64,000 nucleotides of DNA from GCF_053078305.1 NZ_CP166879.1, one strand, 5' to 3'. Counted from the first letter of the stretch, positions 22,601 through 25,528 are shown. The notes: a model not told the origin generated them from the letters alone. A program made the numbers and translations.

Positions 22601-25528
22601 CGCGTTGTAGACGGTAATCACACCATTCTCGTGGTTGGTAGACGTCGCTTTGGTTAATGCTCCATAGTAAGCATCGGTTCCCGAAGCCATTCCCACACCG
22701 AAATCTTTCGCCGTGCTATTTGCGATGTTATTACGCAGCGATGTTTCATCATTTTCATCGACCCACAGCGTATCCAGGGTGATTTGCCCTTCGTTATCCG
22801 CGGTTGATTTATCGATAGCCAACATCCCCACGCTGCCACGACCATACATCTCAATAATGCCCGTTTCGCCGTTCAGAATGGATGACGAGTAGCTGGCAAG
22901 CATACCTGTCAAACCTAATGCTCTGTTATTGAAAGAGGTACCGTCAGACAAGTTCCACTCTGCCGGATAATTCAGCACGCTGTGCTGATTCATCATTTTG
23001 GTGGTCAAGGTGCCATTGTTAACGCCAATCCCCCCGTATTCAACATCGAAGACTTTTGGTGCCGGGTCGGTACCAAAATCGTACATCGCCAGGCCAATGG
23101 ATCCGTTATTGATGACCGTTGAATCTTTATTCCAGGCAGCCGCAAAACCGATATTTTTCAGTTCAACTTCACCGTTATTGGTCGCCTTCGCACCAGAATC
23201 AATACTAATGGTGGATAACGCTACACGATAATAATAAGTGAAAGAATCCACATCACTCATATCAAACGTTGCGTCAGCGCCAATCTCCAGCTCCGCGCCA
23301 TGGCTCAACTGAATGAGATTTTCGAACCCCAGCGGGAACTCGCCGCTGATGGTTGACTCACCATTCAGGTAGACCGAGGAATGCCCATCAACGTTAATAA
23401 GCGGTGTGTCTCCGATACCACGACGAGATGCGGCAGGTTTTGAGCCATCATCCATGACATTTTTTTCACCGACAAAATGAACACCGCCATTAAGCGTAAA
23501 GGTATTGTCATCGCCAGCAATAACAATACCCGCAATGTGTTCCTGAGCACCGTCGTAACTCGCATAGGAACGCGACGTGGTTTCACTATCAGCAACAACG
23601 GTTAACTGACCATCCAGCGTGACGTCGTTGTTGTCACCGCTGATATTTACCCCGGTTGAGGGATTAAAGAAGTAAGGCTGCGCATTATCGGCTTTCTGAT
23701 CTTTATCAACCAGAATACTGCCCGCTATTTCGATAGTATTACCATCACCCGAAACATTAACACCTGTCGCTTCTTGCCCTGTCACATTCAGCCCATAAGT
23801 CGACAGCGTCATGTTGTTATTATCGCCAGAGACATCAAGACCGGTGGAGAAATCCCCAACGTCTAACCCGCCCGCAAGTGAAATATTGGCTTTATCCCCT
23901 GCAACGCTGACACCGGTTCCGGCGTTGGTCGCGGTAATATCACCGACGTTAACAAATGTCGCATTATTACCGTCGATCTGAATGCCGATTGCATTTTCAC
24001 CTGTAGCGGCCTGGCCAACATTGAGGTCGCCCATGTTGATCACGCTGACGCCATCACCATCAAGCAGCATGCCAATAGAGTTATCTTCGATGACCGTAAT
24101 ATTACCTTTGTTGCTAACGAACGTATCATTGCCGTCAACGTCAATACCGTGCGCACCACCGCTTACGTATAAGTCGCCTTCCTGTTTGATGGTGGCACCG
24201 TCACCGACAATTTTCGAGCCAGTGGAATTCTCACCGTCAACGCTCATGGTACCTTGATTATCGACCCGCGCATTATCGCCATTGATAAGGCTACCCGTAC
24301 CACCATTGGTGATGGTCGAGTCGCCCGCAGTGTTCAGCGTAGCATTATCGCCATTGATGATTACTGCGGTACCGCCGTCAACTTCCGTCTCGCCGTTGTT
24401 ATTGATAGTGATATCGTCACCAGTAAGGATACCAACGACCGAACCCTCGCCGATGGCGGTCGTTTTACCGTCGTTGTTGAGGGTGATGTTGTCACCCTCA
24501 ACCGTCATGACAGTACCGCCATTCAGCGCCGTATTGCCGCCCTGATCGGTGATGATCGCATTACCAAAATCAATCGCAGTTCCGGTTGTGCCATCAACAA
24601 CGACACCGGCCTCTTTAGTGATATGGATGAGCCCATCATCGTCGTAGCTCCAGGTGATGCCACCTGCCGTATTTACGCCATCAAAGATGACGGTGTTGCT
24701 GTCGTCATGGACTGTCCAGCCCTTGACTATCGTCGTCAGGCCATCAGGCGCGGTTAAGGTGTAACTCCCATCGGCATTTTGGCTGTAGGTAAAGGTGGTT
24801 TCGCGAATTTTGACGGTTTTCGCGTCCTGATCCCAGGTTACGTCATTTTTATAGACGACAGGATCGTGTTTAACCGGGGTATCGCCACCATCGTCTGGCG
24901 GAACAGGCGTATCACCGCCGTCGTCTGGAACTGGCGTATCACCGCCATCATCTGGTGGAACCGGCGTATCACCGCCGTCATCTGGTGGAACCGGCGTATC
25001 ACCGCCGTCATCTGGCGGAACTGGCGTATCACCGCCGTCATCTGGCGGAACTGGCGTATCACCGCCGTCATCTGGCGGAACCGGCGTATCATCGCCGTCA
25101 TCTGGCGGAACTGGCGTATCACCGCCGTCATCTGGCGGAACTGGCGTATCACCGCCGTCATCTGGCGGAACCGGCGTATCACCGCCGTCGTCTGGCGGAA
25201 CAGGCGTATCACCGCCATCATCCGGAACTGGGGAGTTATTATGGTGGTGATTGTCATCGTCACTTAAGGTATATATAGCAATTCCCGTAGCTACTGCAGC
25301 AAGACCTGCAGCTGCCCATGGTAAAACTGCACTATCTTTATTTTCTCTGCACTCCGCGGATAAATTTTCTAGCTGCTCTTTGCTCAGGGAATGAATATTT
25401 GCCGGACATGTTATCTTACTGGACTTACGTGTTTTTTCGGTTGAGTCGGGTATTGAAGTATCCGCAGCCCATGTCTGGCTACTTAACGCCATGGCAACAC
25501 AAACAGACAATAATTTTTTCCTTTGCAT
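19673..25528 (-). CDS. ydbA: Giant autotransporter adhesin-like protein, intact frame
   Basis: 1951 aa from MQRKKLLSVCVAMALSSQTWA (SD AAGGA); long Gly/Asn/Thr-rich beta-helix-like passenger; C-terminal domain ends ...KGVMLNFKKTF. Confidence 0.9.
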   Translation of the reverse strand: MQRKKLLSVCVAMALSSQTWAADTSIPDSTEKTRKSSKITCPANIHSLSKEQLENLSAECRENKDSAVLPWAAAGLAAVATGIAIYTLSDDDNHHHNNSPVPDDGGDTPVPPDDGGDTPVPPDDGGDTPVPPDDGGDTPVPPDDGDDTPVPPDDGGDTPVPPDDGGDTPVPPDDGGDTPVPPDDGGDTPVPPDDGGDTPVPDDGGDTPVPPDDGGDTPVKHDPVVYKNDVTWDQDAKTVKIRETTFTYSQNADGSYTLTAPDGLTTIVKGWTVHDDSNTVIFDGVNTAGGITWSYDDDGLIHITKEAGVVVDGTTGTAIDFGNAIITDQGGNTALNGGTVMTVEGDNITLNNDGKTTAIGEGSVVGILTGDDITINNNGETEVDGGTAVIINGDNATLNTAGDSTITNGGTGSLINGDNARVDNQGTMSVDGENSTGSKIVGDGATIKQEGDLYVSGGAHGIDVDGNDTFVSNKGNITVIEDNSIGMLLDGDGVSVINMGDLNVGQAATGENAIGIQIDGNNATFVNVGDITATNAGTGVSVAGDKANISLAGGLDVGDFSTGLDVSGDNNNMTLSTYGLNVTGQEATGVNVSGDGNTIEIAGSILVDKDQKADNAQPYFFNPSTGVNISGDNNDVTLDGQLTVVADSETTSRSYASYDGAQEHIAGIVIAGDDNTFTLNGGVHFVGEKNVMDDGSKPAASRRGIGDTPLINVDGHSSVYLNGESTISGEFPLGFENLIQLSHGAELEIGADATFDMSDVDSFTYYYRVALSTISIDSGAKATNNGEVELKNIGFAAAWNKDSTVINNGSIGLAMYDFGTDPAPKVFDVEYGGIGVNNGTLTTKMMNQHSVLNYPAEWNLSDGTSFNNRALGLTGMLASYSSSILNGETGIIEMYGRGSVGMLAIDKSTADNEGQITLDTLWVDENDETSLRNNIANSTAKDFGVGMASGTDAYYGALTKATSTNHENGVITVYNAGAGMAAYGNTNTVINQGTINLEKNENYNDSLGVNKLVGMAVYHEGTAINDQTGVININAENGQAFYNDGTGLIINYGTICTFGVCQGADEYNPTDNYIADLYDDGDVLSSAGETVLLSSGAIINGDVTSAGAVKNGTIRILENGALVNESSGTISSAIVVNEGGALTNEGVLNTVTLEGGTFNNNGTLNDVVKIEKNSNAVINNTGSLSTLQLHDGTVNNSGIASARVNAQGDAVFNNLAGGEARKGAILYNSAVVNNAGTWKMGYQDENNNAGTLDIDDQSTFNNSGKLILDNSKNAIRFQGSNANATLYNTGEMTLDAALGAGAIHYDDGASQFINKGVVDAKVTVAVSTAGATESDAFLWNQDGGVINFDKDNASAVKFTHNNYVALNDGVMNISGNNAVAMEGDKNAQLVNNGVINLGTEGTTDTGLIGMQLDANATADAVIENNGTINIYANDSFAFSVLGTQGHIVNNGTVVIADGVTGSGLIKQGDSVNVEGVNGNNGNNTEVHYTDYTLPEVPNTSSGGVTTGGDATGSGSNNLNGYVVGTNVDGSAGKLKVNNASMNGVGINTGFAAGTADTTVSFDNVVEGSNLTDADAITSTSVVWTAKGSTDASGNVDVTMSKNAYTDVATDASVNDVAKALDAGYTNNELYTSLNVGTTAELNSALKQVSGSQATTVFREARVLSNRFSMLADAAPKMGNGLAFNVVAKGDPRAELGNNTEYDMLALRKTVDLSESQSLSLEYGIARLDGDGAQKAGDNGVTGGYSQFFGLKHQMFFDNGMNWNNALRYDVHNLDSSRSVAYGDVSKTADTDVKQQYLEFRSEGAKTFEPREGLKITPYAGVKLRHTLEGGYQERNAGDFNLSMNSGSETAVDSIVGLKLDYAGKGGWSANATLEGGPNLSYSKSQRTASLAGAGSQHFNVDDGQKGGGINSLASVGVKYSSKESSLNLDAYHWKEDGISDKGVMLNFKKTF
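24877..25227 (-). repeat. About 12 to 13 tandem copies of a 27-bp unit inside ydbA, encoding (P)PDDGGDTPV repeats
   Basis: Near-identical units GGCGGAACYGGCGTATCACCGCCGTCATCT visible on the plus strand; one unit is shorter. Confidence 0.9.

Follow-up and report, generated by a model that had tools for sequence, protein, structure and literature searches.

The DNA considered here is a stretch of 64,000 nucleotides of NZ_CP166879.1 (GCF_053078305.1), called the window below. On its minus strand lies an intact ydbA-type classical (type Va) autotransporter gene of Escherichia coli, and near the N-terminus of the encoded passenger, 45 residues past the predicted signal peptide cleavage site, there is an uncharged, Gly/Ala-rich hydrophobic segment. 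A preliminary description of the sequence had pointed to this segment as a second hydrophobic helix, unusual for an autotransporter passenger, and had offered an inner-membrane anchor, an extended signal or a processing site as explanations. What is a segment of this kind doing in an autotransporter? The features on which the argument depends are the following.

19673..25528, minus strand: intact coding sequence of the ydbA/bigA-like type Va autotransporter, 1951 amino acids (aa) plus stop codon, from the open reading frame (ORF) and its translation
25536..25540, minus strand: Shine-Dalgarno sequence AAGGA, 7 nt upstream of the MQRKK start, read from the sequence
25466..25528, minus strand: predicted Sec signal peptide, aa 1-21, composed of MQRKK, LLSVCVAMALSS and QTWA, followed by AD; from its n-h-c layout and AXA-type site
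aa 22-40: charged leader
25349..25408, minus strand: Cys-clamped loop C41-x18-C60 (CPANIHSLSKEQLENLSAEC), aa 41-60, from Cys conservation
aa 61-65: short acidic link
25262..25333, minus strand: uncharged Gly/Ala-rich hydrophobic segment (SAVLPWAAAGLAAVATGIAIYTLS), aa 66-89, 24 residues, from hydropathy over 19-residue windows
25235..25261, minus strand: acidic/His cluster DDDNHHHNN, aa 90-98, from the sequence and from flank counts in 30 homologues
24866..25234, minus strand: acidic Pro-rich stalk, about 12 copies of PPDDGGDTPV, aa 99-221, from Tandem Repeats Finder (TRF)
24617..24859, minus strand: BigA_N beta-barrel domain (PF25784), aa 224-304, Pfam E=1.2e-31
19763..20362, minus strand: Autotransporter beta-domain (PF03797), aa ~1723-1922, Pfam scan of the C-terminal 400 aa, E=7e-19

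In the ORF listing the gene is a 5.9-kb ORF at 19673-25567 (-), the 5' end of which is the site under study; its translation gives KITCPANIHSLSKEQLENLSAECREN, LPWAAAGLAAVATGIAIYTL, SDDDNHHHNN and then the Pro-rich repeats. We assign the start to the ATG of MQRKK at 25526-25528 rather than to the in-frame ATG upstream at 25567, because the AAGGA Shine-Dalgarno sequence lies upstream of it and because MQRKK forms the first residues of every homologue. The listed ATG places 13 extra codons (25529-25567) ahead of the predicted start.

A type Va autotransporter consists of a signal peptide, a passenger and a barrel. Here the Sec signal peptide was assigned by rule, and the C-terminal barrel is represented by PF03797 together with an aromatic terminal residue, the protein ending in ...MLNFKKTF with a terminal Phe. 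PF03797 went unreported when the whole protein was scanned against Pfam and appeared once the last 400 aa were scanned alone; automated whole-protein scans of long, repetitive proteins can miss a defining domain. Membership in the BigA/YdbA family follows from the presence of both BigA_N and BigA_beta (PF25783, aa 1520-1603, E=1.2e-25). The NCBIfam model auto_BigA (NF033178) gives 1099 bits, its best stretch being aa 1313-1951, against the 3400 bits of the curated cutoff; we class the protein as a relative of YdbA type and not as the exact counterpart of the Salmonella-type BigA.

Cleavage of the signal peptide would fall after Ala21 (21/22), and a small-x-small site equivalent to AXA is seen in the homologues. 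The signal peptide is unusually conserved between genera, following MQ[RK]K..LS.C[IV]A.AL..., with a Cys at position 9-11. No match to the extended signal peptide region (ESPR, PF13018) was obtained in a Pfam scan at E<=0.1, and the protein is not counted as an ESPR member. A lipobox at Cys10, the sole Cys of the signal peptide, was considered and rejected: its context is LSVC after an h-region of 4-5 residues, V, L or F stands at -1 in most members, the pattern [LVI][ASTVI][GAS]C does not occur at the signal peptide end, and the AXA site lies 11 residues downstream.

How strong is the evidence for a second hydrophobic segment? Averaged over 19-residue windows, Kyte-Doolittle hydropathy (KD19), with its classical transmembrane (TM) threshold of 1.6, reaches the maximum of the protein, 1.86, at aa 67-85 inside the segment. 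This is the only 19-residue window with a mean of at least 1.6 in all 1951 aa, and the next unrelated window stands at 1.23. A TM-grade stretch beyond the cleavable signal peptide, first noticed as the 20-mer encoded by 25265-25324, is therefore present, and the possibility that the N-terminal region contains a single signal peptide with no second hydrophobic segment is not borne out by hydropathy. For calibration, the best 19-mer of every ORF of at least 150 aa in the window was taken, and Hessa values were computed as simple sums, which are not those of the full position-dependent ΔG predictor. The simple sum for the segment is +2.5, at a Kyte-Doolittle mean (KD) of 1.86. Genuine integral-membrane proteins in the window give -1.6 to -4.2 and KD 2.5-2.95, with the anchor of YdbH at -4.0 and 2.95, and signal peptides give +2.3 to +4.9 and KD 1.7-1.8. 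On these simple sums the segment is 5-7 kcal/mol less hydrophobic than the genuine anchors in the window. Its hydrophobicity is marginal, in the class of signal peptides and of the toxin VacA, to which we return below.

The segment is widely conserved. Escherichia alleles, which are 61-77% identical and share the same N-terminal layout, were used to build a profile of the N-terminal region, and this was searched against 1.84 billion cluster representatives. It matched 59 of them, 28 at E<=1e-10, and all matches but one weak and probably spurious repeat protein lay at the extreme N-terminus. The full-length matches (1339-2069 aa) all have a BigA-type C-terminal barrel, and every one is a BigA/YdbA-type autotransporter of Enterobacterales. 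Named members, the taxon names being database labels, come from E. coli, E. albertii, Citrobacter, Enterobacter cancerogenus, [Enterobacter] lignolyticus, Rahnella contaminans and Budvicia diplopodorum, so that the module spans several families of the order. When aa 1-99 and aa 222-547 were used in word-indexed searches, the matches were short contig-end fragments only, of Escherichia alleles; relatives that are full-length or distant came to light in the exhaustive profile search alone. One full-length member, P0067, has the N-terminal module and a DP-repeat stalk with BigA_N undetected, and the module is thus not obligatorily coupled to BigA_N.

What is conserved can be described in a set of 30 diverse homologues, 25-77% identical. 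The uncharged core is kept at the same position in 30/30, with a length of 18-28 aa (median 20) and a median KD19 of 1.77. Both Cys of the loop are invariant, and their 18-residue spacing is found in 29/30. Trp71, at the start of the segment, is present in 26/30, Gly75 in 29/30 and Ala78 in 27/30, and a small residue occupies the position of Gly82 in 90%. G75, A78 and G82 are spaced i, i+3, i+7, and bulky V, I and L lie on the adjacent face; if helical, the segment would present a size-amphiphilic surface of the kind used in tight helix-helix packing. The flanks are equally distinctive. Summed over the 30 homologues, the 12 residues on the N-side hold 33 K/R and 95 D/E, and the 15 residues on the C-side hold 2 K/R, 101 D/E and 71 His. 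The Asp/His cluster could bind metal or sense pH. The stalk that follows varies greatly, from 19 aa between segment and BigA_N in P0038 to 163 aa in P0022; stalks of 19-30 aa are found in P0038, P0053 and P0062, and in E. albertii (P0022, P0090-P0102) a 9-aa stalk repeat is present in 3-16 copies according to the isolate, the other 1652 residues being constant in length. The stalk is possibly a hypervariable spacer of the contingency type.

These statistics argue that the segment belongs to a conserved N-terminal cap, predicted to be specific to autotransporters of the BigA/YdbA family and laid out as a Sec signal peptide, an acidic/basic leader, the C-x18-C loop, the Gly/Ala-rich segment, the Asp/His cluster and the variable acidic Pro-rich stalk. 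The cap is undescribed in Pfam, NCBIfam, the PDB and the searchable literature. With the module and the N-termini of six homologues, Pfam at E<=10 gave nothing above noise over aa 22-100; weak matches to Trypan_PARP and PRR reflect Pro/Asp composition only and were set aside. A profile search of the PDB with the module returned no meaningful match, no NCBIfam model covers it, and literature searches on the YdbA/BigA N-terminus, on TM helices in passengers and on lipoprotein autotransporters turned up no publication describing it. Such a segment is, as first noted, unusual for a type Va passenger.

Is the segment an inner-membrane anchor? The preliminary description had suggested such an anchor; it would be a stable one, with a Pro-rich spacer across the periplasm as in TonB. 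In YdbA, as in TonB, the hydrophobic segment precedes an extended Pro-rich region, here a charged repeat, and a KD of 1.86 exceeds the classical threshold. However, a helix that follows a cleaved signal peptide would lie N-out/C-in and would keep passenger and barrel from leaving the cytoplasm, in contradiction to the architecture of an autotransporter. The flank that would be cytoplasmic is acidic and has almost no K/R, where the positive-inside rule would call for positive charge, and the segment falls short of the genuine anchors in the window by the 5-7 kcal/mol given above; thus neither the strong helix nor the positive cytoplasmic flank of a bitopic inner-membrane protein is found. Moreover, a spacer that shrinks to 19-30 aa in some members and ranges over 3-16 repeat copies within E. 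albertii is incompatible with a tether of fixed distance, and the chain would need to cross the outer membrane twice. TonB, by comparison, has as its helix an N-in signal anchor that is not cleaved, and function constrains the length of its spacer, whereas YdbA has a cleaved signal peptide, an acidic flank and a hypervariable spacer. We regard an inner-membrane anchor as very improbable.

The other explanations offered, an extended or second signal peptide and a processing site for signal peptidase, seem equally remote. Their attraction is that the hydrophobicity of the segment is like that of a signal peptide. Yet the protein already has a canonical signal peptide, which ends at a conserved AXA-type site 45 residues before the segment. 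Between the two stands the invariant Cys pair of the C-x18-C loop; the N-flank of the segment is net acidic, and ESPR is not matched in Pfam. As for processing, no conserved small-x-small motif of the signal peptidase type follows the segment, most members having L, I, V or T at -1; a protease of another kind could conceivably cut here. A sorting signal of the rhomboid or GlyGly-CTERM type was also considered and discarded, being at the wrong end of the protein, with the wrong topology and no basic tail.

We think it highly probable, then, that the segment is a real, conserved and exported module, and that it neither anchors the protein in the inner membrane nor belongs to the signal peptide. 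What it does once exported is a harder question. Our leading proposal, which we hold tentatively, is that it travels out with the passenger and serves at the tip as a membrane- or self-associating peptide, a small-residue zipper like that of VacA.

How would the segment reach the tip? The signal peptide would be removed after Ala21, and the segment would then pass SecYEG without stopping transfer and reach the periplasm with the passenger, as sequence statistics and autotransporter topology suggest. We propose that marginal hydrophobicity, together with an acidic C-flank that lacks K/R, lets it escape stop-transfer. In the periplasm the C-x18-C loop would be oxidised to a C41-C60 disulfide, forming a loop narrow enough for type V export. 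The Cys of the mature passenger come as two tight pairs only, C-x18-C and C-x4-C, and secretion-competent passengers reportedly have few, tightly spaced cysteines; the arrangement here fits that paucity. Passengers are secreted from C to N, so that the module would emerge last and form the free distal tip of the adhesin, spaced from the beta-helix by an acidic, polyproline-like stalk. At the tip the segment may be helical, with the G75/A78/G82 face packing against copies of itself or inserting in a target membrane, by analogy with VacA.

To our knowledge, a conserved hydrophobic element at the N-terminus of a mature passenger is documented essentially for VacA alone, and the comparison is worth drawing out. 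VacA is likewise of type Va, and its mature N-terminal region likewise holds the only membrane-length uncharged stretch of the protein, Gly/Ala-rich and with small-residue packing motifs. Its 32 uncharged N-terminal residues carry GXXXG motifs, dimerise and form the channel of the toxin (PMC4926140). Although hydrophobic, the stretch is exported across both membranes, after which the helices associate and insert in the membrane (PMC4926140); such a segment can evidently travel the autotransporter route. VacA residues 1-33, the sequence of which was checked against PDB 6NYF, have a KD of 1.84 and a simple Hessa sum of +3.2, compared with 1.86 and +2.5 for the YdbA segment. The differences are equally plain. 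There is no sequence homology between the two. The VacA stretch runs from mature residue 1 for 32 aa, has GXXXG three times and leads directly into the p33 fold; the YdbA stretch begins 45 aa into the mature protein behind the Cys loop, is 24 aa long (median 20 in the 30 homologues) with small residues at i/i+3/i+7 instead of tandem GXXXG, and leads into the Asp/His cluster and the Pro-rich stalk. Finally, VacA is a released toxin, whereas BigA and YdbA are presumably adhesins that stay on the cell, and no pore activity is known for them.

Several points weigh against the proposal of an exported tip peptide. The likeness to VacA is compositional and positional, not homologous, and the i, i+3, i+7 spacing is heptad-like, unlike the strict GXXXG of VacA. 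The annotation of BigA and YdbA is that of adhesins rather than toxins, with no sign of pore formation. If a hydrophobic peptide were left bare on the surface, it could aggregate or stick to the cell's own outer membrane. The hydrophobicity estimate is a simple sum, and we found neither an experiment on the YdbA N-terminus nor a paper on it. Lastly, AlphaFold2 (AF2) models the hydrophobic segment as coil, with a predicted local distance difference test score (pLDDT) of 33-55 in both of two runs; thus, of the second hydrophobic helix first described, the hydrophobic stretch stands and the helix is a putative one, on which these models are uninformative. The first run used the short-linker homologue P0038 (mature residues 22-217, alignment of 19 sequences) and the second the window's own module (alignment of 30 sequences); the alignments were shallow, and in alignment A2 three rows had repeats shortened by hand, the prediction target being untouched. 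Over the module as a whole pLDDT ranged from 33 to 82, and the Cys loop was modelled as two short helices at moderate to low confidence.

The same models bear on another idea, that the segment has no membrane role and instead lies buried in the core of a small soluble domain at the N-terminus, to which the Cys loop or BigA_N would contribute. The segment does always occur with the Cys loop and, except in one member, with BigA_N. In the first run, however, BigA_N of P0038 was predicted at pLDDT >90 and the segment remained unpacked at 33-41 despite a linker of only 19 aa; in the second, the module alone was also unfolded. We take this as weak evidence against packing of the segment onto BigA_N. 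A run of 18-28 consecutive uncharged residues is, furthermore, long for a helix in a domain of ~70 aa, and the linker to BigA_N is hypervariable. A buried core seems to us quite unlikely, though less so than the inner-membrane and signal-peptide explanations.

If the segment is an exported tip peptide, might it act on membranes other than the cell's own? A bolder form of the proposal is that the Gly/Ala zipper is a harpoon on a variable acidic polyproline stalk, inserting into the membranes of host or neighbouring cells. Were this so, it would provide receptor-independent anchoring or even VacA-like oligomeric pores, and the His cluster could be a pH or metal switch. Class I viral fusion peptides such as that of HIV gp41 are similarly Ala/Gly-rich, marginally hydrophobic and near the N-terminus of a surface protein, on an extended stalk, and the hydropathy of the gp41 peptide is comparable to that of the YdbA segment. 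The likeness is one of composition only, and neither proteolytic priming nor refolding machinery is evident in YdbA. We consider the harpoon unlikely.

An alternative to the harpoon is that the segment is a single alpha-helical anchor in the outer membrane, laid down by the type V/BAM (beta-barrel assembly machinery) pathway. As the last part to be exported, the helix would enter the outer membrane and tether the passenger at both ends, with the Cys loop in the periplasm and the acidic/His flank and stalk outside. Functionally it would resemble the N-terminal lipid of NalP and SphB1, which likewise have a hydrophobic membrane-binding element at the passenger N-terminus besides the C-terminal barrel; they use a lipobox and an acylated Cys, whereas YdbA has an AXA site of the signal peptidase I type and a peptide segment. 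The BigA barrel was in fact placed with NalP-type barrels by Celik et al. 2012 (PMC3419190). An outer-membrane anchor is also favoured by the excess of K/R on the N-side (33, versus 2 on the C-side), by C-side Asp/His residues that could bridge cations to lipopolysaccharide, by a core of 18-24 aa that suits a thin membrane, and by a marginal hydrophobicity that would allow escape from the inner membrane. However, no pathway is known by which a lone hydrophobic alpha-helix enters the outer membrane of enterobacteria. With stalks of 19-30 aa, the segment could not return to the membrane from the tip of a beta-helix of several hundred residues except in a passenger that lies flat, and variation over 3-16 repeat copies within one species is likewise awkward. 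We judge an outer-membrane anchor improbable, on a par with the harpoon.

Could the segment instead serve in biogenesis? It might hold the chain transiently at the periplasmic face of the inner membrane, or be a docking site for a chaperone of the SurA type, and so keep the ~1900-aa passenger unfolded until the barrel engages BAM, a role ascribed to ESPR. ESPR is an extra conserved N-terminal element of very large type V proteins, and reportedly functions in very large autotransporters; YdbA is a very large autotransporter with a short 21-aa signal peptide and no ESPR match. The segment could have a comparable pacing role. ESPR, however, precedes the n-h-c regions of the signal peptide and is removed with it, whereas the YdbA segment lies 45 aa past the cleavage site and stays in the mature protein. 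Most members outside Escherichia begin the segment with W-x-W, which resembles the Ar-X-Ar motif of SurA, and the hydrophobicity is again like that of a signal peptide. On the other side, E. coli alleles have P-W only, with no W-x-W, and the conserved small-residue face points to helix-helix packing rather than to generic chaperone binding. Both flanks would have to be periplasmic, so the segment could not span the membrane, and without a polar face it would make a poor interfacial helix. This role too we think doubtful, to about the same degree as the harpoon and the outer-membrane anchor. Around the gene in two distant family members, no gene for a partner such as a protease, a chaperone or a Dsb protein is conserved.

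The consequences go beyond this gene. A whole family of giant enterobacterial autotransporters, among them E. coli YdbA and relatives annotated as the adhesin BigA, has in common an undescribed N-terminal module with a TM-grade segment. Topology predictors will call the segment a TM helix, with the risk that YdbA and BigA are misannotated as inner-membrane proteins. With this segment one can also ask, in a concrete case, how a marginally hydrophobic stretch avoids stop-transfer at SecYEG and goes through the BAM/autotransporter route, and G75/A78/G82, the C-x18-C loop and the stalk repeat number give a testable handle on what the BigA/YdbA adhesins do.

Some observations on the gene and its surroundings remain. 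At the DNA level the stalk is a 30-bp tandem repeat of 11.8 copies at 24872-25222 by TRF. Stalk repeats break assemblies, and many database entries are fragments ending within them. Some database proteins (P0021 and P0027) join the YdbA/BigA N-terminal module to a different C-terminus, which we take to resemble the J-type tail-tip protein of phage lambda; this points to either a prophage insertion in the gene or a chimeric assembly.

A 99.9% identical E. coli locus is annotated in RefSeq as 'BigA/YdbA N-terminal beta-barrel domain-containing protein', and its flanking genes are ydbL, ynbE, ydbH, ldhA, hslJ, ydbJ and nifJ/ydbK. In the 99.9% identical strain ES5 (L001 1074-6929) the annotation splits the gene into two pseudogene pieces ~1.4 kb apart, and many ydbA entries in databases are partial; ydbA appears to be frequently disrupted across E. 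coli strains. At 25529-26450 of the window, ydbA directly adjoins ydbL-ynbE-ydbH. In K-12 the fea/tynA/paa cluster sits between ydbL and ydbA, and the present strain seems to be without the block. The position of ydbA next to the AsmA-like YdbH system is probably incidental, a matter of strain-specific synteny and not of conserved linkage. Several long plus-strand ORFs run across the repeats at 24254-25278 (+), 24779-25267 and 24955-25278 among them; in all likelihood they are artefacts of the repeat.

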